From: Patescibacteria group bacterium
GTDB taxonomy: Bacteria; Patescibacteriota; Patescibacteriia; UBA9934; GWF2-40-263
Direction: 5' to 3'
NCBI GenBank assembly: GCA_041661745.1
Contig: JBAZTR010000002.1
Location: 68,368 to 132,367 of the forward strand
Length of the DNA: 64,000 bases
Below the pieces are notes generated by a model. That model was not told where the DNA came from. It made no database searches and saw only the letters and a program-made list of their open reading frames with translations. This document shows, one piece after another, positions 4,523 through 53,070 of the stretch; the first letter of the stretch is position 1; each line of letters begins with the position of its first letter. A program made the translations under genes and the position numbers.

Positions 4523-5830
4523 CTATTCTTCAACTCTTTTAATATTCGCTCCCAGCCCTTTCAGCTTTTCTTCCAAACGTTCGTAACCGCGATCAAGATG
4601 TTCGATACCAGTTAAGACCGACTCACCTTCGGCCACTAAGGCGGCTAAGACCAAAGCCAAGCCAGCGCGAATGTCGGGCACAACAATTGGCGCGGCTTTT
4701 AACGGTGTTGGTCCGTTAATAACCGCAGCGTGTTTGTAGTTCATGCCTTTGAAGCGGCAATTTATTTCGCCGAGACAATTTGGGAACAAGGTGATGTCAG
4801 CTCCCATAATATTCAGAGTCTCGGTATATCCGAAACGTTCTTCATAAACTGTTTCATGAACAACACTGGTTCCTTGAGCTTGTGTTAAAACGACAGTGAA
4901 CGGCTGTTGCCAATCGGTCATAAAACCGGGATGAGTATCGGTTTCAAGTTCAATGCCGTGTAAACCATTATCGCGTTTAAACAAAATGCCATCTTCCCTG
5001 ACTTCGTAAGTGCCACCAATTTTTCTGACAGCGTTTAAAAAAGTTATCAAGTGATCGTGTACCGCGCCTTTGATAAAAATTTCACCATTGGTGGCCATGG
5101 CCATACAAGCGTAACTGACGGCTTCGTTTCGATCGGGCATAACCCGAGCCTGACAACCATTTAGTTTCTCAACACCGATAATTTCAAATTGACGACCGAC
5201 CCCGACCTCAATTATGGCCCCCATTTTTTGGAGCATCTTAACCAGTTCCATAATCTCTGGTTCGATAGCGGCGTTTCTAATAACCGTGCGCCCCTTGGCC
5301 AGAACACCGGCCAAAATAACTGTCTCGGTCGCGCCAACCGAAGGAAACGGCAGTTCAATTAATGTGCCTTTCAGACGACCTTCGACCGAGGCACGATAAC
5401 CATCAGGAAGCTCCTCGATTTTCGCGCCCATTTTCTTTAAGGCATCAAGGTGAAAGTTAACCGGCCGCGGCCCAATTTTATCGCCACCGGCCACCGGCAC
5501 AAAAGCTTCGCCAACGCGATGAAGCAACGGAGCGATAGATAAAACAGAGATACGATTTTGGCGTGACAAACCGGTCACGGACGGCGAGGAAATTTTAGCC
5601 GCGTTAACCTCGACTGTATGTTCGGCCACCCATGTGGTGGTGGCACCAATGGCGTGAAGAATTTCTTCAGTAATCTGGACCTCGGCATGACGCGGCAGAT
5701 TTTCCAAAATCACCGGCTCATCGGTTAAAAGAGCGGCGATCATCATTTTAGACGAAGCGTTTTTTGCTCCAGAAAGTTCCACGGTTCCCTTTAAAGGTTT
5801 ACCGCCAATAATATGATAAGTTGATGTCAT
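4523..5830 (-). CDS. murA: UDP-N-acetylglucosamine 1-carboxyvinyltransferase
   Basis: MTSTYHIIGGKPLKGTVELSGAKNA... has full-length similarity to MurA. Start at internal Met, 13 codons into the track ORF. Confidence 0.9.
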   Translation of the reverse strand: MTSTYHIIGGKPLKGTVELSGAKNASSKMMIAALLTDEPVILENLPRHAEVQITEEILHAIGATTTWVAEHTVEVNAAKISSPSVTGLSRQNRISVLSIAPLLHRVGEAFVPVAGGDKIGPRPVNFHLDALKKMGAKIEELPDGYRASVEGRLKGTLIELPFPSVGATETVILAGVLAKGRTVIRNAAIEPEIMELVKMLQKMGAIIEVGVGRQFEIIGVEKLNGCQARVMPDRNEAVSYACMAMATNGEIFIKGAVHDHLITFLNAVRKIGGTYEVREDGILFKRDNGLHGIELETDTHPGFMTDWQQPFTVVLTQAQGTSVVHETVYEERFGYTETLNIMGADITLFPNCLGEINCRFKGMNYKHAAVINGPTPLKAAPIVVPDIRAGLALVLAALVAEGESVLTGIEHLDRGYERLEEKLKGLGANIKRVEE

Positions 5831-5868
5831 AGGAAGTAGCTTGTAGGAGGTAGCTTGTAGATTAGACA
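5826..5868. repeat. CTAC-type leader repeat upstream of murA (single arm)
   Basis: Plus strand ggaagtagcttgtaggaggtagcttgtagattagacac. Reverse complement ctacaagctacctcctacaagctacttcc directly precedes the murA ATG. Confidence 0.5.
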
Positions 5869-8306: not shown

Positions 8307-8458
8307 ATTTTAGCTTGTAGCTTGTAGCTTGTAGGAGGTAGGTTTTTCCGGCTCCAACAGACAACAAGCCGATTAATTTTCTGCAAAAAGATTAACATTT
8401 TATTTTTAAAAAAGCAATGATTCCTGCCTACAAGCTACTTCCTACAAACTACAAGCTA
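8307..8458. repeat. Long imperfect inverted repeat: GTAG-type arm (8310-8342) and CTAC-type arm (8421-8458) around a ~90 nt spacer, forming the ndk leader
   Basis: Left arm tagcttgtagcttgtagcttgtaggaggtagg. Reverse complement of right arm is tagcttgtagtttgtaggaagtagcttgtaggcagg. On the mRNA strand the CTAC-rich arm ends immediately before the ndk ATG. Confidence 0.6.
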
Positions 8459-9388
8459 AAACGGCAATGGCCGACTCTCCACTATCGGTTCCCCACCGGT
8501 CGAGGTAATTAAAACATCGCCATCGAGATCAGTGCGGAAAATTTTGATGCCACGCGTCTGCAAACGTTCAAGAGTGGCCGGATGTGGATGGCCGTAATCG
8601 TTATCAGTGCCAACCGAAATAATGGCGTAGCGCGGCTTAGCAACTTCAAGGAAACTCCCCGAAGTGGAAGTGACACTGCCATGGTGCGCGACCTTCAAAA
8701 CATCAACCGGTTCGGCCAGGTCGTCAAAAATTTCGTCTTCCTCATCAATCGGAGCATCGCCGGTTAAAAGAATCGAGGTCTCACCATAAGTTAAAAGAAG
8801 AACAACCGAGGCTTCGTTTAAGTTGTCGAGTTTTTTGTTTTGTAAATTGGTGTCTGGGGCGATAATTTCTAACCTCACCCCTGCGCCCCTCTCCTTCGCA
8901 AGGAGAGGGGGAGTTCCCTCTGACACCAAGTCCATCACTGCTCCTTGTCCCTCGGTCAACTCGCGAACACTGTCTTGTAGGTCGTCATAACCAAGCACAC
9001 CCGTCTCATAAATTGTCCCGACATTGTAACGAGACAAAACCTCGGGCAAACCACCTTCGTGATCGGCGTGAGGATGAGTGATAATAACAGCATCAATGGA
9101 ACGGTCCCACGGCAACATGACCTGACCAAGTTTGGTTAAAACCGAACTGTCGGCTCCGGCATCCACCAGAATTTGTTCGCCCTCGGGTGTTTCGATGAAA
9201 ATTGCATCGGCTTGCCCCACGTCAAAAATCCAAACCTTCAATTCTTTATCAAGTTGCATTGTATAAAACATCTGCCAGGTTAAAGCTAAAACCATAGCCA
9301 AGGTCATAAGACCAAGGCCAACCAACTTTTTCCGTTGCGCGGAAAATTTTATTGGTCGAGCGCGAGTTTGGATCGGCGAGCGAGCCAT
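8456..9388 (-). CDS. comEC: ComEC C-terminal part: single TM helix plus metallo-beta-lactamase domain (separate ORF or frameshifted continuation of comEC)
   Basis: MARSPIQTRARPIKF...TM...VWIFDVGQADAIFIE...HPHADHEGG...VAHHGS is the ComEC/Rec2 MBL domain. It overlaps the upstream ComEC N-terminal ORF by about 37 nt in a different frame. It also contains in-frame palindromic element copy A. Confidence 0.7.
   Translation of the reverse strand: MARSPIQTRARPIKFSAQRKKLVGLGLMTLAMVLALTWQMFYTMQLDKELKVWIFDVGQADAIFIETPEGEQILVDAGADSSVLTKLGQVMLPWDRSIDAVIITHPHADHEGGLPEVLSRYNVGTIYETGVLGYDDLQDSVRELTEGQGAVMDLVSEGTPPLLAKERGAGVRLEIIAPDTNLQNKKLDNLNEASVVLLLTYGETSILLTGDAPIDEEDEIFDDLAEPVDVLKVAHHGSVTSTSGSFLEVAKPRYAIISVGTDNDYGHPHPATLERLQTRGIKIFRTDLDGDVLITSTGGEPIVESRPLPF
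8870..8911. repeat. GC-rich palindromic element copy A, in-frame inside the comEC beta-lactamase domain (encodes ...TPPLLAKERGAGVRL...)
   Basis: TAACCTCACCCCtgcgCCCCTCTCCTTcgcAAGGAGAGGGGg. Same core as copies B and C. Antisense to the host gene and read in a different frame from copy B. Confidence 0.75.
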
Positions 9389-12000: not shown

Positions 12001-12045
12001 GGGGCGAAAGGGGTACAAGGGGTGGAAGGGGTAAAACGGGAATAA
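12001..12045. repeat. Periodic G-rich repeat (AAGGGGT x4, about 10-nt period); equals a CCCCTT-repeat leader on the ugd mRNA strand
   Basis: ggggcgaaaggggtacaaggggtggaaggggtaaaacggg. Reverse complement lies 25-65 nt upstream of the ugd ATG. Confidence 0.6.
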
Positions 12046-12068
12046 AAAAAGGCCTCCTAGTGGAGGCG
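12041..12068 (-). terminator. Intrinsic terminator after the GC-rich hypothetical gene
   Basis: Minus-strand reading: hairpin GCCTCC-tagt-GGAGGC followed by a T7 run. Confidence 0.55.
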
Positions 12069-12090
12069 AGACAGGGTGTGGAAGTTGGGG

Positions 12091-12588
12091 CTAGCCCGTG
12101 ATGCCGAGCCGCCGGGCATCGGCGATGGCTTGTGCCCGCCGCTCCTCCTCGCTCTGGGCGAGGCGTGCCGCCTGCTCCCGTTGCTGCTTCACCTCGACCC
12201 AGGCCGCGGCGACGGCATTCTCGTTCTCCTGGACGTAGAGAAGGGCTCTCTGCCACTCCTCGGACCTGTCGAACCCCTTGACCATGTACTTGTTGTCGCC
12301 AGACCGGTAGACGGAAAGACAGATCTTGTTACCGAGATGGATGGTGACTTCTTGTCCACCCATGCCGGTCATGCCGTCCTCGAAGAAGAACGAGAGCCCG
12401 CCGAAGTCGAGAAGCTCGCTCTTCGTGTGGTAACGGTACGTGTATTCCTCACTGGAAACGACTCGTCCGCGTCTCTCGATGAGGTCAGGAACGAAGGTGA
12501 AGATGCCGTCGAGGAAATTCTGCCGCTTAGCGACCATTTCCTCGATGGCAGCCGTGGGAAGATCGGAAGCAGAGCGGGATGCGGGCAT
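12091..12588 (-). CDS. Hypothetical protein with C-terminal coiled-coil; GC-rich cassette
   Basis: Protein-like composition on the minus strand; the overlapping plus-strand ORF is L/G/R-rich antisense noise. Bracketed by terminators at 12041-12068 and 12653-12682. Very GC-rich by eye. Confidence 0.4.
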   Translation of the reverse strand: MPASRSASDLPTAAIEEMVAKRQNFLDGIFTFVPDLIERRGRVVSSEEYTYRYHTKSELLDFGGLSFFFEDGMTGMGGQEVTIHLGNKICLSVYRSGDNKYMVKGFDRSEEWQRALLYVQENENAVAAAWVEVKQQREQAARLAQSEEERRAQAIADARRLGITG

Positions 12589-14050: not shown

Positions 14051-16930
14051 TTACTTGATGACGATATTCATTAACTTGCCCGGGACAAAAATCGTTTTAA
14101 CGATTTCTTTTCCGTCTAAATATTTCTTTACGTTGTCTTCAGTTTCCGCCGCCGCTTTCACCTCAGCTTCGCCCGCTTCGGGCGAAACCACGATCGTCCC
14201 GCGAAGTTTTCCATTAACCTGGACGGCAATCGTCACCTCGTCCTCTTTCACAAGTTCGGGATCAAACTCCGGCCACGATCCTTCTTCGACAAAACCTTTA
14301 CCACCAAACGAAGAATAAATTTCGTTGGCCAAGTGCGGAGCAAAAGGACACAAGACACGAACGAATTTTAAAAGATTGTCTTTAGTGATTCCTTTCTCTT
14401 CGTAAACCACATTCACAAAAGTCATCATTTGCGCCACGGCTGTGTTGAAACGAAAACTGTCGATATCCTCGGAAACTTTTTTAATTGTTTGATGAAGGGC
14501 CCGGGTAACTTTCTTAGTTTCTTCTTTAATTATAATTTGTTCCAACCCGGAAACTCGTTCCAAAAAGCGTCTGGTCCCGACCAAACCATTGGTACTCCAC
14601 ACGGCCGGTTGATTAAACGGCCCCATAAACATTTCATAAACCCGCAGAGCATCGGCTCCGTAATCGTTTACCATGTCGTCGGGATTAATTACATTACCCC
14701 AGCGCTTCGACATTTTGCGACCATCTTCGGCCAGAATCAAACCAACGTTTTGTAAACGAGTAAAAGGTTCCTCAACGCTAACCGCGCCAATATCAAAAAG
14801 AAACTTGTGCCAAAACCGCGCATAGATAAGGTGACGGGTGGCATGCTCGGCTCCACCAACATACAAATCAACCGGCGACCAATATTTTTCTTTTTTAGCA
14901 TCAACCAAAGCTGTGTCATTTTTAGGATCCATGTACCGCAAATAATACCAACAACTGCCAGCCCATTGCGGCATGGTGTTGGTTTCACGTTTGGCCGGGC
15001 CGCCACAGTTAGGACAAGTTGTGTTAACCCACTCGTCAATGTTGGCCAGCGGCGATTCGCCAGTGCCTGTTGGTTCGTAGTGTTCAACTTGTGGAAGTTC
15101 AAGCGGTAGTTGATCTTCCGGAAGGGCGACGACTCCACACTTGGCACAATGCACAAGCGGAATTGGCTCGCCCCAATAACGCTGGCGAGAAAAAACCCAA
15201 TCACGAAGTTTATATTGCGTTTGGCATTGGCCCAAACCCTTTTCTTCCAACCAAGAAATCATGTCAGCTTTGGCTTTCCAGGTCGGCAGGCCATCCAAAA
15301 AGTCGGAATTAATGGCTACGCCTTCTTCAACAAAAACCGGTGCACCTTCCTTGTAGGCGTACCAAATCATCGGGCCATCGACAACGTTAACGGTTTTTTC
15401 TACTTCACTTTCATCAAACCAAACCGGCTCGTGATTTTTTAATTCTTCGGCCGGAATTTCATCATGATCATCGTTTACTAAATCCAAAACCGCCACACGA
15501 ATTTGCGCATATCGATTTTGACCTTTGTGCGCAGCAAAATATTCGGTGTGAACTTCGAAACCGACATCTTTAACAAATTTAAAATTTTTATAACCGGTTT
15601 CCTCGGTCGCTTCACGGATAGCCGCGGTAGATAAATCTTCGTCACCTTCAATACCACCGATAATAAAGGTGTGGAGGTGCGAACGGCTAGGTGTAATATT
15701 AGAAAACCAATTAAGCAGCAAAACTTTTCCGTCTTTCGGGTTACGAATAATGACATGAACGTTTTTGCGACGGCTTTCCGGAACCCCTTCGTGCGGCGGA
15801 TTGGCTGGATCAATGAAATGGGGAGCGACTACTTGTTTAATTGGCAAATTATATTTTGTGGCAAAGGCAAAATCGCGTTCATCGTGTGCTGGCACGGCCA
15901 TAATGGCGCCGGTGCCGTAGCCCATCAAAACATAATCAGCCACCCAAATCGGAATTTTTTCATTGTTGGCCGGATTGATGGCATAAGCGCCGGTGAAGAC
16001 GCCAGTTTTTTCTTTGGTATCATCGCCGCGTTCAATATCTGTTTTAGCTTTCGTGGCGGCAAGGTAATTTTCAACCTCAACTCGACATTCACTAGTGGTA
16101 ATTTCCGAAACAAGCGAATGTTCAGGAGCCAAAACCATGTAAGTCGCGCCAAATAAAGTGTCGGGACGGGTGGTGAAAACTCTAACCTCACCCCTTCCCT
16201 CTCCTTCGTAAGGAGAGGGGGAAACGATTTTGAAAGTAACTTCCGCCCCCTCGCTCTTACCAATCCACTCCCGCTGCATTTGCTTAATCGAGTCCGGCCA
16301 TTCGGTCAGCTTATCGAGATCGGCAAGCAGACGATCGGCATAATCGGTAATTTTCAAAACCCACTGGCGCATTGGTTTTTGTTCAACCACACTGCCGCAG
16401 CGTTCACATTTACCATCGTCCAAATCTTCATTGGCCAAACCGGTTTGGCAACTCGGGCACCAATTGATTGGTTCGAAAGATTCATAAGCCAAACCTTTTT
16501 TAAACATCTGAAGAAACGCCCATTGTGTCCATTTATAATATTTTGGATCAGTTGTGTTTACTTCCCTGTCCCAATCATAAGTAAAACCAAGAATGGAAAG
16601 CTGTTTTTTAAAAACTTCAATATTCTGCTTAGTAGCCACGGCCGGATGGACTTTATTTTTAATGGCAAAATTTTCCGCCGGCAAGCCAAAAGCATCCCAA
16701 CCCATGGGGTGAAGAACAGAAAAACCCTGCATCATTTTAGTGCGAGCTACAACATCGGTGGCAATGTAGCCTTTAGGGTGACCAACGTGAAGCCCGGCGC
16801 CGGAAGGATATGGAAACATGTCGAGGGCATAAAACTTTTTCTTGCCAGAATCTTCATTAGTTTTAAAAATGCCGGACTTGGCCCATTTTTCCTGCCACTT
16901 TTTCTCAATTTGTTTGTGATCGTAAGGCAT
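14051..16930 (-). CDS. leuS: Leucyl-tRNA synthetase carrying an inserted Nudix hydrolase domain (about residues 385-530) and an in-frame palindromic element (residues 237-251)
   Basis: HVGH motif (GAGLHVGHPKGY), KMSKR motif (GRKMSKRWGN) and CP1 editing region (TTRPDT). A Nudix box GGIEGDEDLSTAAIREATEETGY sits between AVPAHDERDFAFATKY and the leucyl-specific region YKLRDWVFSRQRYWGEPIP. Confidence 0.9.
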   Translation of the reverse strand: MPYDHKQIEKKWQEKWAKSGIFKTNEDSGKKKFYALDMFPYPSGAGLHVGHPKGYIATDVVARTKMMQGFSVLHPMGWDAFGLPAENFAIKNKVHPAVATKQNIEVFKKQLSILGFTYDWDREVNTTDPKYYKWTQWAFLQMFKKGLAYESFEPINWCPSCQTGLANEDLDDGKCERCGSVVEQKPMRQWVLKITDYADRLLADLDKLTEWPDSIKQMQREWIGKSEGAEVTFKIVSPSPYEGEGRGEVRVFTTRPDTLFGATYMVLAPEHSLVSEITTSECRVEVENYLAATKAKTDIERGDDTKEKTGVFTGAYAINPANNEKIPIWVADYVLMGYGTGAIMAVPAHDERDFAFATKYNLPIKQVVAPHFIDPANPPHEGVPESRRKNVHVIIRNPKDGKVLLLNWFSNITPSRSHLHTFIIGGIEGDEDLSTAAIREATEETGYKNFKFVKDVGFEVHTEYFAAHKGQNRYAQIRVAVLDLVNDDHDEIPAEELKNHEPVWFDESEVEKTVNVVDGPMIWYAYKEGAPVFVEEGVAINSDFLDGLPTWKAKADMISWLEEKGLGQCQTQYKLRDWVFSRQRYWGEPIPLVHCAKCGVVALPEDQLPLELPQVEHYEPTGTGESPLANIDEWVNTTCPNCGGPAKRETNTMPQWAGSCWYYLRYMDPKNDTALVDAKKEKYWSPVDLYVGGAEHATRHLIYARFWHKFLFDIGAVSVEEPFTRLQNVGLILAEDGRKMSKRWGNVINPDDMVNDYGADALRVYEMFMGPFNQPAVWSTNGLVGTRRFLERVSGLEQIIIKEETKKVTRALHQTIKKVSEDIDSFRFNTAVAQMMTFVNVVYEEKGITKDNLLKFVRVLCPFAPHLANEIYSSFGGKGFVEEGSWPEFDPELVKEDEVTIAVQVNGKLRGTIVVSPEAGEAEVKAAAETEDNVKKYLDGKEIVKTIFVPGKLMNIVIK
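15340..15780 (-). other. Nudix hydrolase domain inserted within the leuS coding sequence (approximate bounds)
   Basis: Nudix signature GX5EX7REUXEEXGU is satisfied by GGIEGDEDLSTAAIREATEETGY. About 150 aa are extra relative to E. coli LeuS at this position. Confidence 0.6.
16183..16221. repeat. GC-rich palindromic element copy B, in-frame inside leuS (encodes ...SPSPYEGEGRGEVRV...)
   Basis: TAACCTCACCCCttCCCTCTCCTTcgtAAGGAGAGGGGg. Base composition contrasts sharply with the surrounding leuS sequence. Confidence 0.8.
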
Positions 16931-17178: not shown

Positions 17179-18405
17179 TTATTTCATGGCCGCTTCGATT
17201 CTTTCCATAGCCACGACAAAGGCCGCTTCGCGGACTGTACAGTTCAAAAAAGTTTTTTTATCCCATACCGCTGTAAGAGCAGCTTGCATGGTTTCACCTA
17301 ATTTAGCTTTCACTTGCTCTTCGGTCCATTTTTCATCCTTCATGTTTTGTGCCCACTCAAAATAACTAACAGTAACACCACCGGCGTTGGCCAGAATATC
17401 TGGAACAACCGGAATACCACGGGCCGCAAAAATTTCGTCAGCTTCTGGGGTAGTCGGACCGTTGGCAACTTCAAGAATCGCTTTAGCTTTAACGCGTGGG
17501 GCGTTGTCAGCCAAAAATTGATTCTCCAAAGCCGCTGGCACCAACACTTCGCACTCAAGCTCAAGCAATTCAGCATTAGAAATATTCTGAGCACCAGGAA
17601 AATTTTGAACCGAACCGGTTTCTTTCTTGTGAGCGTCAACGGCAGTTACATCCAAACCTTCTGGGTTATAAATTCCACCACGTGAATCGGACAAGCCCAC
17701 GACTTTATAACCGTTCTTAAAAAAGAGATTGGCCATTTGGTGTCCAGCATTGCCAAAACCTTGGACAACAATGCGACAAGCTTCCTTACTAATATTCAAA
17801 CGCTCGCGCAAACCTTCAAAAACAAAGTAACCGCCATCACCCGTGGCCGTGCCACGACCAAGCGAACCGCCGGCTTCAATGGTTTTCCCAGTAATAACAG
17901 CGAGCGGATGCGGATGATTGGTGGTTTTTTTAAATTCATCGACAATCCAATCCATTTCGCGCGGGGTGGTGTTAACATCCGGGGCTGGCACGTCTTTTTC
18001 CGGACCAATCACATCGGCTAAAGCCTTAGCCCAACCGCGCGTTAAACGTTCGAGTTCGCCAACCGAAAGAGTTTTTGGATCAACGGTAATTCCCCCCTTG
18101 CCGCCACCCATAGGAATTCCAACCACGGCACATTTCATGGACATCCAAAGAGCTAAAGCTCGCACCTCATCAATATTTGTTTCGTGATGATAACGGATAC
18201 CGCCTTTGTACGGCCCACGAGCGTTGTTGTGTTGAACGCGGTAGCCGGTAAAAATCTTTTGTGTACCATCATCCATTTTTATAGGAATCGCAATCTGAAT
18301 TTCCCGTTGTGGCTGACGCAGTTGGGCCAAAAAATCAGGGTTAAAAGACTGAAATTTGGCGGCCCGATCAAGCTGTTTCAAAGCGCTCTCGAATGGATTA
18401 GGCAT
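17179..18405 (-). CDS. gdhA: NAD(P)-dependent glutamate dehydrogenase
   Basis: KGGIRYH, GVPMGGGKGG and NAGGV motifs. Start at internal Met MPNPFESALKQ. Confidence 0.85.
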   Translation of the reverse strand: MPNPFESALKQLDRAAKFQSFNPDFLAQLRQPQREIQIAIPIKMDDGTQKIFTGYRVQHNNARGPYKGGIRYHHETNIDEVRALALWMSMKCAVVGIPMGGGKGGITVDPKTLSVGELERLTRGWAKALADVIGPEKDVPAPDVNTTPREMDWIVDEFKKTTNHPHPLAVITGKTIEAGGSLGRGTATGDGGYFVFEGLRERLNISKEACRIVVQGFGNAGHQMANLFFKNGYKVVGLSDSRGGIYNPEGLDVTAVDAHKKETGSVQNFPGAQNISNAELLELECEVLVPAALENQFLADNAPRVKAKAILEVANGPTTPEADEIFAARGIPVVPDILANAGGVTVSYFEWAQNMKDEKWTEEQVKAKLGETMQAALTAVWDKKTFLNCTVREAAFVVAMERIEAAMK

Positions 18406-18562
18406 AGTGCAAAAAATTATTTTTTTCCTAGGACGAATATAGATTAATACTTTGGTAAGTGGAGGGCAACAAAAAAAGTGTATAACCATTGACAACAAGG
18501 AAATTTTATGTTAAAAATAACCGCCTCTTTGAGTCCACCCCGCAAATTCTCCCGGAGGAGAA

Positions 18563-18811
18563 ATGCTAGGAAAGTTCCTTGGCAACGAATTCGCCACGCC
18601 GGTCACGGCAGTCACTCTCATGGTTGCGGCCATGCTCATCTACGCCGGAATGGCCTGCCGACTGCACGTTGGCACGCCGGCCTTCATCTGGTTGGCCCTG
18701 GTGTTGGCCTTCCTGGTGGAGGCCAACCTCGAGTGCCTCCCGGCCCGGTGGATGACGAAGGGTTTTGCCGTGGCCCTCGCCGGCGCCGCGGCCGTCTGCG
18801 TCATCTTCTGA
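18563..18811 (+). CDS. Small GC-rich membrane protein with 2 predicted TM helices; hypothetical
   Basis: GGAGGAG Shine-Dalgarno 6 nt upstream of the ATG. Two hydrophobic helices. Overlapping longer ORFs on both strands are R/G/P-rich noise. Immediately followed by palindromic element copy F plus a T-run. Confidence 0.35.
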   Translation: MLGKFLGNEFATPVTAVTLMVAAMLIYAGMACRLHVGTPAFIWLALVLAFLVEANLECLPARWMTKGFAVALAGAAAVCVIF

Positions 18812-18813
18812 GT

Positions 18814-18860
18814 CTTCCTCCCCAACCCGCCCCTCCTCAACTCTCGAGGAGCGGTTTTTT
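18814..18860 (+). repeat. GC-rich palindromic element copy F, acting as terminator stem after the small membrane ORF
   Basis: CTTCCTCCCCAACCCGCCCCTCCTCaactctcGAGGAGCGG + TTTTTTT. Aligns with copy C sense sequence CCTCACCCCCCAACCCCTCTCCTTacgAAGGAGAGGGG. Confidence 0.6.
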
Positions 18861-18870
18861 TAATCAAAAA

Positions 18871-18892
18871 AACAACGGTCGAAACCGTCGTT
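18871..18892 (-). terminator. trxB terminator hairpin
   Basis: Minus-strand reading AACGACGGtttcgaCCGTTGTT followed by a T-run. Confidence 0.5.
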
Positions 18893-18894
18893 TT

Positions 18895-18950
18895 CACCTC
18901 TCCCCTTCTCCCCTCTCCTTCGTAAGGAGAGGGGTTGGGGGGTGAGGTTA
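18895..18950 (-). repeat. GC-rich palindromic element copy C at the 3' end of trxB; its TAA terminus is the trxB stop codon
   Basis: Minus-strand reading TAACCTCACCCCccaaCCCCTCTCCTTacgAAGGAGAGGGGagaaggggagaggtga. Copies C and F are tail-to-tail around two convergent terminators. Confidence 0.75.
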
Positions 18951-19871
18951 TTTTTGTAACCAACGTTCAGCATCCATGGCTGCCATACAACCAGTACCAG
19001 CCGAAGTGATAGCCTGACGATAACGAGTATCGGCAACATCACCGCCGGCGAAAACACCAGGGACACTGGTTTCACTCCCACGCCCCTTACATATAATGTA
19101 ACCACGCTCATCCATTTCCACTTGTCCCTTAAACATTTCTGTATTCGGTTTGTGGCCAATGGCCGGAAAAATGCCATCGACCTTAATTTCTGTTTCCTCG
19201 TTGGTTTTAGAATTCAGAACTTTTGCGCCGGTTACCTTTGTCCCATCACCAAGAACTTCTTTAACCGAAACATTCCAAACAAAATTAATTTTTGCTTCGG
19301 CCTGGGCTTTCTCTTGCATGATTTTTGAGGCTTTTAGACTTTCACCGCGTACCAGAACTGTTACCTTATTGGCAAACTTAGCGAGGTCAAGAGCCTCCTC
19401 CATAGCGGCATCACCACCACCAACAACCGCGACTTCTTTACCTTTAAAGAAAAAGCCATCGCAAGTGGCGCAAACCGAAACCCCCTTACCTTTATACTGT
19501 TCCTCGCCCGGCACATTCATCCAAATGGCCGAGGCTCCGGTGGCAATAACCAAACTCTCGGTTTGGTATTCCGCCCCGCTGGTCGAAACAATCTTAAAAG
19601 GCTGCGCCGACAAATCAACCGAAGCAATATTTTCGGCGATAATTTTTGTTCCAAACTTTTCCGCCTGTTTTCGCATGCGCTCTTCCATTAACTCCGAACC
19701 ATAAACACCTTCAGGAAAGCCGGGAAAATTTTCGACGACTGTTGTCCACATTAATTGCCCGCCTGGTTGCGGCCCGGAAAACAAAACCGGAGCAAGTTCA
19801 GCTCGCGCGGCGTAAATGGCCGCCGTGTAACCGGCCGGACCAGCGCCGATGATGATTATTTTTTCTGACAT
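18948..19871 (-). CDS. trxB: Thioredoxin-disulfide reductase
   Basis: GAGPAGYTAA FAD motif, CATC redox site, GGGDAAMEEA NADPH motif. Confidence 0.9.
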   Translation of the reverse strand: MSEKIIIIGAGPAGYTAAIYAARAELAPVLFSGPQPGGQLMWTTVVENFPGFPEGVYGSELMEERMRKQAEKFGTKIIAENIASVDLSAQPFKIVSTSGAEYQTESLVIATGASAIWMNVPGEEQYKGKGVSVCATCDGFFFKGKEVAVVGGGDAAMEEALDLAKFANKVTVLVRGESLKASKIMQEKAQAEAKINFVWNVSVKEVLGDGTKVTGAKVLNSKTNEETEIKVDGIFPAIGHKPNTEMFKGQVEMDERGYIICKGRGSETSVPGVFAGGDVADTRYRQAITSAGTGCMAAMDAERWLQK

Positions 19872-19877
19872 AAATTA

Positions 19878-20426
19878 TCAATTAATTAAATATTCCCAAC
19901 CCGGTTGCCAGGCTTTGTTTTTCCGCCAATCCTCGGCAAAAGCTTGTTCCCAGGTTTTATTTTTTAGCAGGACGTCGAGAGCTAACTGCGGCGCTTTGTG
20001 AGCCACAATAGCCACGTGCTTACCGTCATAATTTTCTTTTAGGTGCTTAAGAAAATCAGCGATTCTTATTTTAACATCTTCATAACTTTCTCCGCCAGGG
20101 AAACGGTTGATAATATTTTGTTCCTGAAGCGGCTCGACAATGCTTGAGGGTTGGGCGTTAAAGTCCCCGTAGTCGCATTCACGAAGTCGCTTATCTTGAA
20201 TAATCTGCCAACCACTATCACCAAAAGTCAATTGTGCCGAAGCAACTGCTCGTTTCAAATCAGAACAAAAAACCACATCAAATTTCTTATCTTTGATATG
20301 GTTTTTTAATTCAATAGATTGTTTTATCCCAAGTTCGGATAATTCAGCATCATGACAGCCGGAAGAAATCTCTCTTTCATTATCAGTGGTGGTTCCGTGA
20401 ACAAAGTAAGTAATTTGAACTGACAT
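19878..20426 (-). CDS. Histidine phosphatase family protein (phosphoglycerate mutase-like)
   Basis: N-terminal VHGTTTDNE resembles the RHG catalytic motif of branch-1 histidine phosphatases. Length 182 aa. Confidence 0.55.
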   Translation of the reverse strand: MSVQITYFVHGTTTDNEREISSGCHDAELSELGIKQSIELKNHIKDKKFDVVFCSDLKRAVASAQLTFGDSGWQIIQDKRLRECDYGDFNAQPSSIVEPLQEQNIINRFPGGESYEDVKIRIADFLKHLKENYDGKHVAIVAHKAPQLALDVLLKNKTWEQAFAEDWRKNKAWQPGWEYLIN

Positions 20427-20430
20427 AAAA

Positions 20431-20482
20431 CAGGGGTTCTCCCTCTCTCGTCGCCACGACGGGGGAGGGTTGGGGTGGGGGC
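20431..20482 (-). repeat. Divergent copy E of the GC-rich palindromic element family, intergenic between trxA and the histidine phosphatase gene
   Basis: Minus-strand reading gcCCCCACCCCAACCCTCCCCCgtcgtggcgacgAGAGAGGGagaacccc. It has the same architecture, with compensatory changes that keep a stem (CCCTCCCCCGTCG / CGACGAGAGAGGG). Confidence 0.5.
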
Positions 20483-20800
20483 CTAGAGCGCTCGCTCAAT
20501 TCTTTCCTTCATCGCTTCCTTGGTTAAAGCTCCGGAAAACTGATCAACCGGCTGACCACCTTTAAAAACCATGAAGGTTGGAATAGAAAGGATATTAAAA
20601 CGTTGAGCCACCTCGGTTTCTTCGTCAACATTAACTTTGGCCACAATAACGGAATCCATCTCATTGGCCAGCTCTTCGACAATCGGCCCCATCATGCGAC
20701 ACGGACCGCACCACGGTGCCCAGAAATCGACAAACACCGGCTTATCAGATTGCAAAATGGTTTGATCAAAATTTTGTGAAGTTAAGTTGAGTTCAGACAT
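20483..20800 (-). CDS. trxA: Thioredoxin
   Basis: WAPWCGPCRM active site. Length 105 aa. Confidence 0.9.
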   Translation of the reverse strand: MSELNLTSQNFDQTILQSDKPVFVDFWAPWCGPCRMMGPIVEELANEMDSVIVAKVNVDEETEVAQRFNILSIPTFMVFKGGQPVDQFSGALTKEAMKERIERAL

Positions 20801-40121: not shown

Positions 40122-41885
40122 ATGTCGGACTTACCATCAATTGAAGACTTATTAAAAAAGAAACCCTCGCCTGCTTCCTTGCCCGTGGCCAGTGCCACCT
40201 TCGCCCCAGCCGCCTCAACGGCGCCCGCAGCCGCGGCCCCGGCCTCAGATTTAGAAGAAAAAATGAAGGAAGTTCGTTTAAAGGAAAAGGAAGATGAAGC
40301 GCAAGGAAAAGCGCGCGACCTTGGCGTATCTTTCGTTAACCTAAAAGGCTTCCCGATCAGCCCGGAAGCTTTGTCTTTGATTCCTCGCGAGCAAGCGGAA
40401 AAATTAAAAGTTGTCTGTTTTTTACACACTGGTCCGGAAATTCGTTTGGCTGCTCTGGAACCAAAAAGCGAAGGGGTCCAAGAGTTGGCCTTTCAGTTAG
40501 CTGAACGTTATAAAGCCAACAGTGTGGTCTATCAGGTCTCCGAGGAAAGCATGCGCTTGGCCATGAAGGCTTACGATTCCCTGCCGAAATTTAAACCGAT
40601 TGTTAAAGGGGTAAAAATAACTGATACCGAATTAGCCAAGTTTCAAGCGGCCATGACCACCTTTGCTGATATTCAAAAAACTATTCAGAACGCTTCGGTT
40701 ACCGATATTTTAACCATCGTTGTGGCCGCTGCCCTTAAATTTGATTCCAGCGACATTCATATTGAGGCTGAGGAAAATAAAATCGTTGTGCGTTATCGCC
40801 TGGACGGCGTTTTACAGGATGTCGCCGATCTGCCACACGAAGAATGGAAAAAAATTATCTCGCGTATTAAATTGATCTCTGGTTTAAAAATTAATATTGT
40901 CGAACGTCCGCAGGATGGCCGTTTCACAATTTTTATCAAAGATGGCGACACCGACGTTCGTGTTTCCACCATTCCCACCAACTGGGGCGAATCAGTGGTT
41001 ATGCGTCTCTTGAAACCGGAATCGATTGATGTTTCTTTCTCACAACTCGGCTGGCGACCAATCTTGGAAAAAAAGATTTTGCGTGAAATCGAAAAGCCGC
41101 ATGGCATGATTGTCACCACCGGTCCGACCGGCTCTGGTAAAACCACGACTCTTTACGCTATTCTTAAAAAATTAAATAAGTCCGATGTAAAAATCATCAC
41201 TTTGGAAGATCCGATCGAATACAAAATCGAAGGTCTAAACCAATCACAAATTGATGCCTCAAAAAATTACACTTTTGCCGCCGGTCTCCGTTCTATTCTT
41301 CGCCAAGATCCGGACATTATCATGGTCGGCGAAATTCGCGACCTGGAAACAGCCGACACAGCCATCAACGCCGCCCTTACCGGGCACCTTCTTCTTTCCA
41401 CTATCCATACCAACTCCGCTTCCGGGGCTTTGCCGCGTTTTATTTCCATGGGAGTCAAACCATTTTTACTTGCCCCGGCCCTAAACGCAATTGTCGGCCA
41501 ACGCTTGGTACGCAAGGTTTGCGAAAAATGTAAAACCAATGACGCTTTGACACCAGAACGATTGGAAGAAGTTAAAAAAATACTTGGCGTTATTTCTCCG
41601 ACTTCGGGTGAAGCTATTCCCGACCTAAATAATCTAAAATTTTATAAAGGAACCGGTTGTGAAGAATGTAACAACACTGGTTACAAAGGTCGCATCGGTA
41701 TTTATGAAGTTATTTTAATGGATGATACGGTTCGTGCTTCCCTTTCAGAAAATATCTCCGAATATGAAGCGCAAAAACTAGCCTTGGCTCAAGGTATGGT
41801 CACCATGTCGCAAGACGGTTTACTTAAAGCCCTTGATGGCATTACTGATGTGGCCGAGGTGTTCCGGGTAACTGGCGGCACATAA
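40122..41885 (+). CDS. pilB: Type IV pilus assembly / type II secretion ATPase (PilB/GspE family)
   Basis: N1 domain, Walker A GPTGSGKTTT, Asp box, Walker B and His box, tetracysteine motif CEKC...CEEC. The Ala/Pro-rich low-complexity N-terminus is GC-rich. Confidence 0.85.
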   Translation: MSDLPSIEDLLKKKPSPASLPVASATFAPAASTAPAAAAPASDLEEKMKEVRLKEKEDEAQGKARDLGVSFVNLKGFPISPEALSLIPREQAEKLKVVCFLHTGPEIRLAALEPKSEGVQELAFQLAERYKANSVVYQVSEESMRLAMKAYDSLPKFKPIVKGVKITDTELAKFQAAMTTFADIQKTIQNASVTDILTIVVAAALKFDSSDIHIEAEENKIVVRYRLDGVLQDVADLPHEEWKKIISRIKLISGLKINIVERPQDGRFTIFIKDGDTDVRVSTIPTNWGESVVMRLLKPESIDVSFSQLGWRPILEKKILREIEKPHGMIVTTGPTGSGKTTTLYAILKKLNKSDVKIITLEDPIEYKIEGLNQSQIDASKNYTFAAGLRSILRQDPDIIMVGEIRDLETADTAINAALTGHLLLSTIHTNSASGALPRFISMGVKPFLLAPALNAIVGQRLVRKVCEKCKTNDALTPERLEEVKKILGVISPTSGEAIPDLNNLKFYKGTGCEECNNTGYKGRIGIYEVILMDDTVRASLSENISEYEAQKLALAQGMVTMSQDGLLKALDGITDVAEVFRVTGGT

Positions 41886-42360: not shown

Positions 42361-43395
42361 CTAAGCGAGACGGAGATTAGGATCAGCCTCAAACTTAAGA
42401 GGATCGATAAATTCTTTTCGCTCGGCACGCCACGCTCCAGCCGCGGCAATCATGGCCGCGTTGTCGCCAGTAAATTCAAGTGATGGAAAAAATACCGGCA
42501 AGGGCGACAATTTATTTTTCATTTCTTCGCGAAGTAACAAATTAGCCGAAACACCGCCAGAAACGATAACTGATTTAGCATTGGTCTTTGCAACAGCTTT
42601 AATTGTTTTTTCAACCAAAACATCGACCACAGCTTGCTCAAAGGAGGCACAGACGTCTTCGATTCCCCCTCCCACATTGGGGGAGGGGTTAGGGGAGAGG
42701 GATTCGGGATGAGTCTTAAGATAAACCGCTACCGCTGTTTTTAATCCGGAAAAACTAAAATCAAAATCTTTGCTGTCTAACATTGGCCGGGGAAAATCTA
42801 TTGCCCCTCTTTTCCCTTCTAACGCATGTTTAGAAATTTGCGGCCCGCCCGGATATGGCAAATCAAGAAGTTTAGCTACTTTGTCGAAAGCTTCACCGGC
42901 TGCATCATCACGTGTGCGCCCCAAAAGTTCATACTCACAAAAATTTTTCATGAGTAAAAGTTCGGTGTGTCCGCCGGAAACCAATAAACAGACGGCGGGA
43001 AATTCCGGCGGGGTCTCGACCGCAGCAATAAAAGCGCTGGCAATGTGTCCCTCCATATGGTTCACGGCCACCAATGGTTTTTTCCAAGCAAAGGCTAAAG
43101 TTTTAGCTGCTTCAACCCCAATCCTGAGGGCTGGAACCAAGCCCGGGCCAGCCGTAACAGCAATCGCGTCGATATCGGCTCCGTCGTGTGACACACCAGC
43201 CGCTTCAAGCAAGGGAAAAACCACATTAACGTGACAGCGAGCCGCCACCTCGGGTACCACTCCGCCATACTCGGCATGTTTGGCCGCCTGTGAAGCAATC
43301 AAACTTTTCTCAACAACAAAACTCCGGAGGCCATCGCTCGAAACGATGGCGACCGAAGTTTCATCACAACTTGTTTCAAGTCCTAATAAACGCAC
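42361..43395 (-). CDS. tsaD: tRNA N6-adenosine threonylcarbamoyltransferase TsaD (Kae1/Gcp family) carrying in-frame palindromic element copy D
   Basis: MRLLGLETSCDETSVAIV...HMEGH metal-binding motif. Inserted peptide ...SLSPNPSPNVGGGIED... at residues about 232-247. Confidence 0.9.
   Translation of the reverse strand: MRLLGLETSCDETSVAIVSSDGLRSFVVEKSLIASQAAKHAEYGGVVPEVAARCHVNVVFPLLEAAGVSHDGADIDAIAVTAGPGLVPALRIGVEAAKTLAFAWKKPLVAVNHMEGHIASAFIAAVETPPEFPAVCLLVSGGHTELLLMKNFCEYELLGRTRDDAAGEAFDKVAKLLDLPYPGGPQISKHALEGKRGAIDFPRPMLDSKDFDFSFSGLKTAVAVYLKTHPESLSPNPSPNVGGGIEDVCASFEQAVVDVLVEKTIKAVAKTNAKSVIVSGGVSANLLLREEMKNKLSPLPVFFPSLEFTGDNAAMIAAAGAWRAERKEFIDPLKFEADPNLRLA
42662..42706. repeat. GC-rich palindromic element copy D (divergent), in-frame inside tsaD
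   Basis: attCCCCCTCCCacattGGGGGAGGGGttaggggagaggg. Sense to tsaD it reads TCCCTCTCCCCTAACCCCTCCCCCaatgtGGGAGGGGG. It encodes a P/S-rich then G-rich peptide, like copy B. Confidence 0.6.
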
Positions 43396-44716: not shown

Positions 44717-45253
44717 ATGGCGGGGACACAGACCGGAGGAAGAACCATGGTACACCATGCCGTGGCTCTGCCTGTTAGCGAGGATGGCCGTGAGGTCCTC
44801 CTCGCGTGTCACACTGAGGGAACCAATTATGGGGCCCTCCTTCCTCCCAGTGGTAAGGTGAAGCCAACGGATCGAAACGCCCAAGCTGCTGCGGTCAGGG
44901 AAACCCGCGAAGAGCTGGGTATCGATCTCGACGATCCACGATGCGTAGGTGTCGTGGAGGTCCTCAAGGAAGACGGCGACTGGCTGAGACTGTTCGTCTT
45001 TGTCTCGCGCTACCGTGGGAAGCCCCGGAAAAGCAACGAGATGAGAGACGCGCGTCTCTTCCCGATCGACGACCTGCCTCTCGAGGACATGTGGCCCGAT
45101 GCTAGTAGCTGGGTGCCTCACGTGATCAACCATGGTCACGACGCCCCGCCACTCGGGTTCAGGCTTCGCCACGTGCGTGGACCAAATGGCCGTCCCGGGT
45201 TCCTTGTCAAAAGGTTCAACCCGGCCGCGTTGGTCAGGAGGTACTGCGCATGA
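44717..45253 (+). CDS. Nudix hydrolase; GC-rich island gene
   Basis: Nudix box GKVKPTDRNAQAAAVRETREELGI. Markedly GC-rich by eye. The overlapping antisense ORF 44651-45319 is judged spurious. Confidence 0.55.
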   Translation: MAGTQTGGRTMVHHAVALPVSEDGREVLLACHTEGTNYGALLPPSGKVKPTDRNAQAAAVRETREELGIDLDDPRCVGVVEVLKEDGDWLRLFVFVSRYRGKPRKSNEMRDARLFPIDDLPLEDMWPDASSWVPHVINHGHDAPPLGFRLRHVRGPNGRPGFLVKRFNPAALVRRYCA

Positions 45254-45413
45254 CCACCTCACCCAACAACCCCTCGGCCGCCAGGCCAAGGACTCACGTC
45301 GATCGTTCGAGCACCCCACTTGCTCATGGTCGGCGTTTTATTTCTCCACGAGAGTGTCTGGCTTATTCCTTGACTCCTTTTCAAAAATCATTTATCATAA
45401 CCGCGCAATTTAT

Positions 45414-45488
45414 GGCCCCATCGTCTAACGGTTAGGACGCGAGCTTTTCAAGCTTGTAATCCGGGTTCGATTCCCGGTGGGGTCACCA
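45414..45488 (+). tRNA. tRNA-Glu (anticodon TTC)
   Basis: GGCCCCAtcGTCtaacggttaGGACgCGAGCttttcaaGCTTGtaatCCGGGttcgattCCCGGTGGGGTCaCCA. Confidence 0.85.
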
Positions 45489-45492
45489 CAAA

Positions 45493-45526
45493 GGTCATCT
45501 GTAAAAACAGGTGATTTTTGTTTTTA
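45493..45526 (+). terminator. Intrinsic terminator after tRNA-Glu
   Basis: TCATCTGtaaaaaCAGGTGAtttttgttttt. Confidence 0.6.
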
Positions 45527-45571
45527 AAAAACCGCCCGCCAAGCGAACCTTGGGGACGGGACGAACGAAGA

Positions 45572-46444
45572 CTACTCCTCCAAGAAACGTCGGTGTTGTT
45601 CGACCATCGCGAGCAACTCGGGGCCGGTGAAGACTGGGCGTTGAATTGTCTGCCAGTCGTTGGTCGAACGTGCAGGGTCCCACGGGCAAATCGAACGCAT
45701 CCAGTCAAGGCGAGTCCGCACATCAGTCGCACCTTCGGGATTGATCCGAGTATAGTGGAGGATATGGCCGTTGTGAATGCGGTCCAGGTTGCGTCGCGAC
45801 CTATCCAAATCGCGGAAGCGCTGCGGCGTCATGCGCTCAATAAGCACACGAACGGCCCACATAACCTCACCATGACAGACGATGATGACCGAGCCGTTGG
45901 ACTGCTCGCGGTGAAGTGAGTCAAAGAAAGCATGCAGACGATCAAGGACATCGGCCAGTGATTCACCGCCACCCGGCCGCCACCACACACCATCACGTTC
46001 CCTACGAGCCAAATTTTCGGCCATCTCGCCAGTGGCCCGCTGTTCAGCCGTGGCCGAACTAAGCCGACCCCAGTCGCGCTCGGACAGCATGGGGTGCAAA
46101 AGCCACTCAGCCCCCGGCATTTCTAGCAACCCGGCCGTTTCGATGGCCCGAGCGTACCAGCTAGTCAGGTAACGAGTGAAGCCTGCGGGAAACTCACGCC
46201 GCAGCCACTCACCGGCGGCCGCAGCTTGATTGCAGCCGCGCGGACTAAGACGCCATTCCTGGGTGTGAACCGCGTCGAGCTTGGCCATGAGTGAGCTATC
46301 GCCTTTTTTTACCAGAGCCTGGGCAACATTCCCCTCGCTCTCTCCGTGACGAACGAGGACAAGATTAAGCGGCATAGTCATGGACACATCCCCTTTCATT
46401 GAGCCTTGGAAATCGACCTTAACACCTAATTTTTTAAGCGTCAA
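45572..46444 (-). CDS. Histidine phosphatase family protein (phosphoglycerate mutase-like); GC-rich island gene
   Basis: LVLVRHGESEGN RHG catalytic motif. Start may be the internal Met MPLNLVLV at about 46375. GC-rich like the adjacent Nudix gene. Confidence 0.55.
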   Translation of the reverse strand: MTLKKLGVKVDFQGSMKGDVSMTMPLNLVLVRHGESEGNVAQALVKKGDSSLMAKLDAVHTQEWRLSPRGCNQAAAAGEWLRREFPAGFTRYLTSWYARAIETAGLLEMPGAEWLLHPMLSERDWGRLSSATAEQRATGEMAENLARRERDGVWWRPGGGESLADVLDRLHAFFDSLHREQSNGSVIIVCHGEVMWAVRVLIERMTPQRFRDLDRSRRNLDRIHNGHILHYTRINPEGATDVRTRLDWMRSICPWDPARSTNDWQTIQRPVFTGPELLAMVEQHRRFLEE

Positions 46445-52020: not shown

Positions 52021-53070
52021 TCAGAAGCGGAAGACGAGGATGCCAGTGCCGGTGGCCAGCAGAACACCGCCGACAGCCAAGGTGCTGATCTGCGAGGCGC
52101 GAACCGCCTCGTAGGCCTTCTGGTCGCGCGGCTCCAGGGGCTCCATGAGGTAGGCGTCGCCGATCCCGTAGAGGGAGGCGCTGGCGACCCCAAAGAACAG
52201 TCCGGAGCCGATGACCGCCCAGCCGGCGTTCGGGTGCCCCTTCTTCTTGCCGGGGACGACCGGGGCCGGCGGCAGTACCGCGACTGCCCGAACGGGCGGC
52301 ATCGCGATGACATCGGTCGGATCGTAGTTGCCGGTCACGTCGACGTGTGCCTTGTCTTCGGTGGCCTCGCCGACCCTCTTGTCGACGAAACGCTGGAACT
52401 CGGCCACGGTGATTTCGCCGTTGCCGGAGGCGTCGGCCAGACCGTCCAGGCCTTCGGCTACCACTTGACCGAAACCTGCCCACTCCGAACCAGTGTTGGC
52501 CGGAAGGTAGGACACGGCCAGGATGTTCGGAGCCTGGTCGGACCAGTGGCGCGACTGCGGACCAACCAAGGCCACGTTGCCGAGCGAACCCTGACGCATG
52601 GTCTGGGTCACGACGATGACCTGAACCCCGGGCTTGATGGACCCCATGAGCCCATCGACCCTGACGCCGCTGGCCATGACATCACTTGGGTTGACGTCCC
52701 AGGGCAACAGGTAGGGGTCATCGAAGTCGCCCCCGACGGCCAGCATGGAGATGTAGAGGAAGAGCGAGTCGCCGGCCTCCAGGTTGATGGCGAAGTCGTT
52801 CGAGAAGAGACTCTCGATGTCGACCTTGTTGGCCTTGCTGCTCACCACGAGGTTGACCTCGTAGCCGGAAGCCTTCAGGGCCAGACCCAGCTGGCGAGTC
52901 TGCTCCAGCCCAGCGTCGAGCGACCGCGGCAAGGTGGTGTCCTGGTAGTTGTCGACAGCCAGGACGACCGCGATCTTCTTCGGATCCCCATCCTCGGCCC
53001 CCGCCACTGCAGGGCAAAGGAGGGAGAACAGGAAAGCCATGGCAACGGCGAAGGCCAGACGATTGAACAT
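52021..53070 (-). CDS. Secreted/membrane-anchored caspase-like (peptidase C14-like) domain protein with EF-hand calcium-binding loop and C-terminal TM helices; GC-rich island gene
   Basis: Signal peptide MFNRLAFAVAMAFLFSLLCPAVAGA. Caspase-like block KIAVVLAVDNYQD...ASGYEV...GDSLFLYIS...VQVIVVTQTMRQG. EF-hand DASGNGEITVAEF. Two C-terminal hydrophobic helices. Very GC-rich by eye. Confidence 0.4.
   Translation of the reverse strand: MFNRLAFAVAMAFLFSLLCPAVAGAEDGDPKKIAVVLAVDNYQDTTLPRSLDAGLEQTRQLGLALKASGYEVNLVVSSKANKVDIESLFSNDFAINLEAGDSLFLYISMLAVGGDFDDPYLLPWDVNPSDVMASGVRVDGLMGSIKPGVQVIVVTQTMRQGSLGNVALVGPQSRHWSDQAPNILAVSYLPANTGSEWAGFGQVVAEGLDGLADASGNGEITVAEFQRFVDKRVGEATEDKAHVDVTGNYDPTDVIAMPPVRAVAVLPPAPVVPGKKKGHPNAGWAVIGSGLFFGVASASLYGIGDAYLMEPLEPRDQKAYEAVRASQISTLAVGGVLLATGTGILVFRF

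Follow-up and report, generated by a model that had tools for sequence, protein, structure and literature searches.

Two short GC-rich hairpin elements, copy C at the 3' end of trxB and copy F at the 3' end of a convergent small ORF, are probably non-autonomous palindromic repeats of a mobile type that are spreading in Uhrbacteria and survive in protein loops and after stop codons. They were analyzed in a 64-kb stretch of DNA (hereafter the window) from a Patescibacteria (Candidatus Uhrbacteria-like) MAG, together with ~56 kb of sequence from close relatives. The window TrxB was 100% identical to P0001, a thioredoxin-disulfide reductase encoded on a 217-kb contig of a Patescibacteria MAG, and among the matches listed the next TrxB relatives were from Uhrbacteria. 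Genome and metagenome scans with TrxB identified at least three close relatives, and others were added one by one. The minus-strand gene order infB, trxA, His_Phos gene, trxB, gdh and leuS was syntenic in several relatives; the small ORF lies on the plus strand between trxB and gdh. Patescibacteria have tiny, tightly packed genomes and, to our knowledge, are not known for dispersed repeats.

A family of GC-rich palindromic repeats

The family consists of lineage-specific GC-rich palindromic repeats of ~40-55 nt in a genome of ~46% GC (window mean 45.9%). About 8 copies were present in 64 kb, three of them inside genes (A, B and E; Table 1). The shared layout is a C-rich box (CCTCACCCC or CCCCAAC) and a hairpin with the 5' arm CCCCTCYCC, separated by a short spacer, frequently TAA, TAG or AA. 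The copies were too heterogeneous to align in register, and a rule-based scan with shuffled controls was used, not a covariance model. A relaxed scan for the C-rich box plus hairpin revealed 8 matches in the window compared with 0-1 in first-order Markov shuffles; six of these were copies A, B, C (on both strands), E and F, and the other two were likely false positives. The 23-nt core CCCTCTCCTTNNNAAGGAGAGGG occurred three times in the window (at 8887, 16197 and 18911; 0.00 expected), and the 12-mer TAACCTCACCCC was identical at 12/12 positions in copies A (ComEC-like gene), B (LeuRS) and C. Relative L001 has family copies of its own, the cores of which differ from those of the window, where A, B and C share TAACCTCACCCC plus the core. 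Comparison with Rfam 15 revealed only tRNAs above the gathering threshold in the window; across positions 18400-19050 the best hits were generic hairpin matches of 17-23 bits against thresholds of 50-79.

Table 1. Repeat copies and associated features, in window coordinates unless a relative is named
Feature	Position	Strand	Basis or remark
trxB, thioredoxin-disulfide reductase, 307 aa, ends ...AERWLQK*	18948..19871	-	ORF list, P0001 match, TrxB alignment
trxB stop TAA, also first triplet of the TAACCTCACCCC arm of copy C	18948-18950	-	12-mer shared with copies A and B
Copy C, 55-nt near-perfect palindrome	about 18896-18950	-	Core repeat, repeat families, fold
Native trxB intrinsic terminator, hairpin AAAACGACGG-TTTC-GACCGTTGTTTT + U7	18866..18894	-	Fold -13.2 kcal/mol
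Copy F: C-rich leader CTTCCTCCCCAACCC, hairpin 18829-18855, T7 18855-18861	18812..18861	+	Terminator scan, fold
Small membrane-protein ORF, 82 aa, GC 64%, GC3 84%, SD GGAGG upstream, stop TGA 18809-18811	18563..18811	+	
Promoter-like site of the small ORF, TTGACA-18-AAAAAT	18489..18518	+	Conserved in L167
Copy A, in frame (minus-strand reading) in ComEC-like MBL gene, ...PPLLAKERGAGVRL...	8870..8911	+	
Copy B, in frame (minus-strand reading) in LeuRS, ...SPSPYEGEGRGEVRV...	16183..16221	+	
Copy D, from directly after trxA stop TAG (20483-20485) to just before His_Phos ATG (20426)	20430..20482	-	
Copy E, in frame in TsaD, ...SLSPNPSPNVGGG...	42662..42704	-	
Copy H: TAG, then CCCCAACTTCCACACCC leader, GCCTCC/GGAGGC hairpin, T7; after GC-rich ORF 12091..12588	12044..12090	-	
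Copy G (weak): TGA-cca-CCTCACCCAACAACCCCTC + GGCC hairpin; after GC-rich Nudix-like ORF 44717..45253	45254..45296	+	
trxB-gdh variable slot	window 18412-18947; L081 3925-4504; L083 3934-6193; L001 4919-5609; L086 2366-3096		
(GGGGATA)3GGG runs	L165 3938-3968; L166 2050-2080		
GC-rich islands	12091-12588; 18563-18811; 44717-46444 (around tRNA-Glu 45414-45488); 52021-53070		

A search for an empty counterpart of the copy A site revealed that nearly all close ComEC-like homologs carry an element-like peptide (LPPxxxGEG) in the loop, and the element-free ComEC-like homologs were too distant for nucleotide alignment at copy A. In homologs P0124-P0142 the loop peptides read LPPSYG..GGG, LPLLTKEGV and PPLTLGEGLG; they were absent in distant homologs. 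To judge from these peptides, the loop would be either an old insertion that is continually rewritten or a site that has been re-invaded.

The arrangement of copy D, which fills the space between trxA and the His_Phos gene, was also identified in L169 and L081. Its G-rich 3' arm GAGAGAGGGAGAA is SD-like and ends just before the His_Phos start codon (20426-20482, minus strand), and positions 812-885 of L169 have the same arrangement with GGGAGGAGGAGAGAACTTATG. Opening of the copy D hairpin may couple translation of trxA and the His_Phos gene.

Copy C and the 3' end of trxB

Past trxB, the minus strand reads TAA-CCTCACCCCCCAA-CCCCTCTCCTT-ACG-AAGGAGAGGGG-AGAA-GGGGAGAGGTG, followed by AAAACGACGGTTTCGACCGTTG and T7. 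The TAA runs straight into TAACCTCACCCCCCAACCCCTCTCCTTACGAAGGAGAGGGGAGAAGGGGAGAGGTG, and copy C is built from the outer arms CCTCACCCC/GGGGAGAGG and the inner hairpin CCCCTCTCCTT-ACG-AAGGAGAGGGG. The copy forms an interrupted hairpin of 20 bp (-36.6 kcal/mol, z = -5.8), the stem of which already includes the last A of the trxB stop codon, and the native trxB terminator lies immediately 3' of it. Thus, the first-pass annotation was correct in that copy C begins with the TAA of trxB and sits ahead of the terminator hairpin. Copy C itself is not a terminator, as no U-run follows it directly and the native terminator comes next; a GC-rich hairpin with a U-run at its 3' end was found in copy F and in the native trxB terminator, but not in copy C alone. 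Copy C now separates the trxB stop from the old terminator as a very stable hairpin in the 3' UTR. Copies C and F had also been described as lying tail-to-tail. Both are element-type sequences placed directly after stop codons, as described; the orientation of C, however, rests on the arm that matches better, which adjoins the TAA, because C is a true palindrome that aligns with copy A in both orientations.

To examine the C-terminus of TrxB, 30 relatives were aligned and the DNA was read at 13 trxB 3' ends. The closest relatives end WLxx* at one alignment column. In the element-free relatives L001, L169 and L170, TrxB ends at this same column (WLKE* or WLRE*) with the stop codon TAA, and therefore the native protein does not extend past the stop. 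A terminator homologous to that of the window follows the trxB TAA in L001 and trxB in L081. In L081 and L082 a shorter form of the element (CCTCACTCCC-TTCTCTCT-GGGGGTGAGG) comes after the trxB TAA, and TrxB of L081 also ends WLQK*; L171 has a family member 6 nt past the trxB TAA. The first-pass annotation had held that the element was recruited as the trxB stop codon and had asked whether the native protein runs on where the element is absent. In these relatives the protein has the same length at its C-terminus, the very outcome named there as counting against the idea, and for trxB the proposal is contradicted. From these alignments, copy C appears to have landed at, or merged with, a pre-existing trxB stop, with the TrxB protein unchanged and nothing truncated. 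The TAA may be the old stop that served as landing site or an element-borne replacement of an identical triplet; the protein would be the same either way.

The 3' end of trxB, a hot spot, is occupied by differing repeats in most relatives. TrxB gains 2-11 residues in seven of them (L085, L165, L166, L168, L083, L086 and L172). In L085, L165, L166 and L168, G-rich runs displace the trxB stop and add GVGERGSSFLLR, GKGDRG, GIGDRG or RDRG; these runs correspond to the other strand of such elements or to (GGGGATA)n. L083 and L086 carry other repeat types at the trxB end and have short extensions. Analysis of other gene ends revealed a further case in L001, where TruB ends ...PTLKPLT* and an element (CCCCTCACC-TAA-CCTCTCCCCCAGGGAGAGGGG) contains the PLT codons plus the TAA; the window TruB, which has no element, stops seven residues earlier. 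The L001 TruB stop therefore reads as a genuine element-supplied stop. At trxA, the protein ends at the same residue in 8/8 genomes, with a family member 0-3 nt past the stop in the window, L169 and L081 and none in the five others. Reshaping of gene 3' ends, as first suggested, was thus borne out by the TrxB tails of the seven relatives and by TruB of L001. The wider claim that the elements are recruited as stop codons and terminators applies in part: the TruB stop and the predicted terminator of copy F fit it, whereas the trxB stop does not and copy C is no terminator.

Two side observations concern the repeats found in this slot. The (GGGGATA)3GGG run is a canonical G-quadruplex motif, and it is read through by trxB in L165 and L166 to give the GKGDRG or GIGDRG tail. 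The trxB 3' slot holds TGTAG-type repeats in L086 (2366-2405) and GGAGT-type repeats in L083 (3934-3965).

Copy F and the small membrane-protein ORF

The small ORF displayed strong coding periodicity, with GC fractions of 0.61, 0.47 and 0.84 at the three codon positions. No Pfam match was identified and a word-index search returned only the ORF itself; an exhaustive search revealed P0122 as its only homolog (45% identity, E = 2e-9). On the P0122 contig, L167, gdh lies on one side and is 86% identical over 77 aligned N-terminal residues, and the promoter-like and SD sequences of the window ORF are kept. The possibility that the ORF is a non-gene or an assembly chimera was ruled out by its GC3 periodicity, by records from several sources and by this syntenic ortholog. 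The ortholog in L167 is only 51% GC, despite the 86% identity of the flanking gdh.

Copy F starts 1 nt after the small-ORF TGA with GTCTTCCTCCCCAACCC, followed by the hairpin and T7, in agreement with the first description of this end. The hairpin has 9 bp with one C·C mismatch and the loop AACTCTC (-13.8 kcal/mol, z = -2.5), and a terminator scan identified copy F as the only terminator-like site on the plus strand here. The L167 ortholog ends ...ICVIF*, then TGA, a C-rich leader, a hairpin and a T-run; the loop CAACTCT and the T-run are kept, and the stem is different but pairing. Copy F is therefore old and travels with its gene, and its structure has been kept despite sequence change, as expected of a working terminator. 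These features support copy F as a putative intrinsic terminator of the small ORF, and the first-pass reading of its hairpin in this role agrees with the kept loop, stem pairing and T-run.

We consider it likely that copy F also belongs to the repeat family. It is a much weaker member than copy C, and beyond CCCCAACCC and the general layout the two have little in common. The CCCCAACCC motif is common to F, C and D (4 matches in all compared with 0.64 expected; 3/4 stop-adjacent). The leader of F is C-rich (12/18 C), as is that of H (9/18), whereas ordinary terminators in the window have A-rich leaders; among ~75 terminator-like hairpins, one other, at 41423, also reaches 9/18 C. Copy F was kept in the family because this C-rich leader sets it apart from ordinary terminators.

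The small ORF is one of several GC-rich islands (58-76% GC, GC3 up to 0.84) that look like acquired genes in the 46% GC genome. An F-type end is not a general property of such islands, as ORF 52021..53070 has an ordinary terminator. The content of the trxB-gdh interval varies, with unrelated small ORFs from one relative to the next; across genomes these comprise membrane-like ORFs of 82, 55, 53, 31 and 153 aa and, in L001, an uncharacterised ORF of 170 aa. A promoter-like motif, GTGTATAACCATTGAC, adjoins gdh and is conserved in the window, L167 and L081.

Placement, occupancy and origin of the copies

Family copies start 0-7 nt past stop codons in real excess over chance. In the window, 5/27 C-rich tracts start between -2 and +3 nt from the stop of a long ORF on the same strand, and in the relatives (~56 kb) 6/41 start between -3 and +7 nt from such a stop, compared with an expectation of ~3% in which spurious ORFs were counted too. 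The genes concerned are trxA, trxB, gdh, small ORFs and the Nudix-like gene. The preference for gene 3' ends that had been suggested from trxB and the small ORF was therefore recovered as a positional excess; it could reflect selection on the survival of insertions, not a preference during insertion. Occupancy of orthologous sites was a mosaic. At the trxB 3' end, the window, L081/L082 and L171 have an element and L001, L169 and L170 have none, and in L169 the trxA copy is present and the trxB copy absent. In the LeuRS loop, the element lies in opposite orientations in the window and L001. The stop-adjacent excess, the occupancy mosaic and the opposite LeuRS orientations together point to repeated gain and loss, and therefore to a spreading repeat. 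No target-site duplication or direct repeat flanked copies A, B or C (TAA was found on the 5' side only), and no clean filled-versus-empty junction was found at orthologous sites; nor did a transposase, RAYT gene or IS element come to light among the window features considered. For this reason, we infer mobility from the distribution of the copies only.

To account for these observations, we propose that a repeat of the REP, MITE or RPE kind spreads in the genome and that its copies come and go at orthologous sites. Purifying selection would leave the harmless copies, namely those in tolerant protein loops, in stop-free frames and, above all, just 3' of stop codons. Copy C would have landed on or right after the pre-existing trxB TAA, and copy F would be an older, diverged copy, the hairpin and T-run of which serve the convergent small ORF as a terminator. 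A hairpin at a gene 3' end would be an inert or stabilising 3'-UTR structure (C) or, given a T-run, the terminator itself (F and H). By analogy with E. coli REPs that lie no more than 15 nt from a stop, copy C might damp TrxB synthesis.

Several other readings of copies C and F were weighed against this proposal. It is conceivable, although we doubt it, that only C is an element and that F is the native terminator of the small ORF with a leader that is C-rich by composition or chance. The orthology of F in L167, its unremarkable hairpin (z = -2.5), a likeness to C that is confined to CCCCAACCC and general C-richness, and the high GC content of the small ORF itself are all consistent with a plain terminator. 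However, the C-rich leaders of F and H depart from the A-rich norm, and CCCCAACCC is over-represented, mostly next to stops. In several genomes, the stops of trxA, trxB, gdh and other ORFs are followed by the same series of C-box, spacer and hairpin with a C-rich arm. The stop-adjacent hairpins might also be selected cis-regulatory 3'-UTR devices and not selfish insertions, which we regard as unlikely; they could lower expression by ribosome stalling, protect the mRNA 3' end or, in the case of D, couple translation through the SD-like arm. The stem of copy C begins at the last base of the UAA, and the terminating ribosome must therefore melt it; according to PMC12306157, which cites its reference 17 for this, ribosome stalling has been reported for REPs located no more than 15 nt from a stop. 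The position of the D arm just upstream of the next ATG in both the window and L169, and the conservation of F across two species, point the same way. Against such a device stand the patchy occupancy of orthologous sites among close relatives, the in-frame members of the same family within coding regions, and the unrelated repeats that fill the same trxB slot in other relatives.

A more specific reading, in which the family homes to stop codons, inserting at T-R-R stops or 3' of them, perhaps through a single-strand mechanism like that of IS200/IS605 with a TAA-type target, and acts on the terminating ribosome, seems to us quite improbable. If true, the C-rich arm would mask the SD-like G-rich arm and termination would open the hairpin; the opened hairpin would then tune the upstream gene or re-initiation on the next, as the layout of copy D suggests, and the family would be a mobile regulatory module of the Candidate Phyla Radiation (CPR) that targets stop codons. 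We give little credence to insertion of the element into the coding end of trxB, such that its own TAA now terminates an originally longer or different protein. The 12-mer shared with A and B includes the TAA, which does not act as a stop in those two copies, and the TruB stop of L001 shows the type of change envisaged; yet the three element-free relatives end TrxB at the identical column with TAA, and L081, with its shorter element, has the same WLQK* end. Least credible is an origin without mobile units, in which the hairpins arise locally at recombination-prone gene ends by slippage, by gene conversion between GC-rich tracts or from structure-prone G4/i-motif sequences. The simple (GGGGATA)3 runs at the same trxB site in relatives, the variable trxB-gdh interval with its different small ORFs, and the lack of a target-site duplication at A, B and C are compatible with local formation. 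Against it, copies in unrelated genes 2.7-10 kb apart are identical at 12/12 and 23/23 nt, so that copying from a template is needed, and the LeuRS element has opposite orientations in two relatives.

The copies were compared with known systems, and they constitute a new repeat family of an already known kind (REP, MITE, RPE or SPRITE-like). Similar to the REPs of Enterobacteria and Pseudomonas, they are short GC-rich imperfect palindromes that are repeated in the genome and would be transcribed into 3' UTRs; unlike REPs, about half of the copies lie in frame inside genes, the copy number is low and a distinctive C-rich leader box is present. REPs are defined as palindromes of 20-40 nt with many intergenic copies; the elements are palindromic and repeated, but at ~8 copies per 64 kb, 3 of which are intragenic. 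In E. coli, the distance from the end of the preceding ORF is 1-20 nt for many REPs, and at such positions they can affect translation or mRNA stability (PMC12306157). REP end tags read GTAG or CGTC (PMC3733652); no such tag was identified in A, B or C, where the ends read TAACCTCACC... and ...GGAGAGGTG, and an internal CGTC occurs in D only. With respect to MITEs, terminal inverted repeats were found in C (CCTCACCCC / GGGGAGAGG), A and B lack a second arm, and a target-site duplication was not detected at A, B or C.

Small bacterial repeats are known to fuse in frame, extend ORF 3' ends and mimic terminators (PMC3184786, PMC10969869). RPEs are the closest parallel in setting, as palindromes in a small-genome, host-dependent bacterium that lie in frame in housekeeping genes without destroying them (PMC10969869, PMC3184786). 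They are, however, ~100-150 bp, AT-richer and unrelated in sequence, whereas the copies described here are 40-55 nt, GC-rich and often just past stops; with this length, a Patescibacteria host and no Rfam or sequence match, the family does not belong to the RPEs. Copies F and H resemble SPRITE, a dispersed repeat that mimics an intrinsic terminator at gene 3' ends (PMC3184786, PMC10969869), although SPRITE is ~105 nt, of other sequence and from another phylum, and only some copies here (F and H) have a T-run. Enterobacterial and Yersinia repeat units and BRE (Delihas reviews) are joined to ORF ends, with C-terminal residues added or replaced (PMC3184786), which parallels the TrxB tails of the relatives and TruB of L001; in contrast, trxB of the window neither gains nor loses residues. 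Yeast mitochondrial GC clusters such as GC42 are also short GC-rich hairpin elements that spread in an AT-richer genome, with conserved stems, variable loops and presence/absence between strains (PMC4478555), but they are organellar, mostly intergenic and use AG as target site; copies A, B and C showed no target duplication. An integron attC site (GTTRRRY / RYYYAAC) was rejected: the arms read GGTGAGGTTAGAG / GGTGAGGTTAGAA, the core motif fails because GTTAGAG and GTTAGAA miss the final Y, and a cassette array is lacking. In the literature searched, repeats of this sort had not been described for Patescibacteria.

The family tolerates in-frame life in essential genes (LeuRS and TsaD), repeatedly settles a few bases from stop codons and, in some copies, would supply the terminator hairpin. 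It thus offers a compact natural example of selfish hairpins becoming 3'-end architecture. In practical terms, automated MAG annotation picks up spurious C-terminal extensions and 'PSPxxGEG' peptides from the copies, which also mark hypervariable slots such as the trxB-gdh interval.

Further observations were made on LeuRS and on other repeats. Between GAEVTF and VFTTRPDT, LeuRS has a hypervariable loop that is a hot spot for insertions. LeuRS of the window carries a Nudix-box insertion, GGIEGDEDLSTAAIREATEETGY, and LeuRS of relatives carries a DUF559 (Vsr-like endonuclease) insertion, which in L001 adjoins the element site; the regions concerned are window 14051-16930 (minus strand), L001 8720-8915 and L081 6397-6924. 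A C-rich near-tandem with four ACCCCTT-like units lies at 12010-12034 (minus strand), between the T-run of copy H and the ATG of a UDP-glucose dehydrogenase-like gene (11980). A second, unrelated repeat family is built on GTAGCTTGTAGG / TGTAG units, with direct and inverted copies in the window at 5821-5860, 8308-8351 and 8427-8467.
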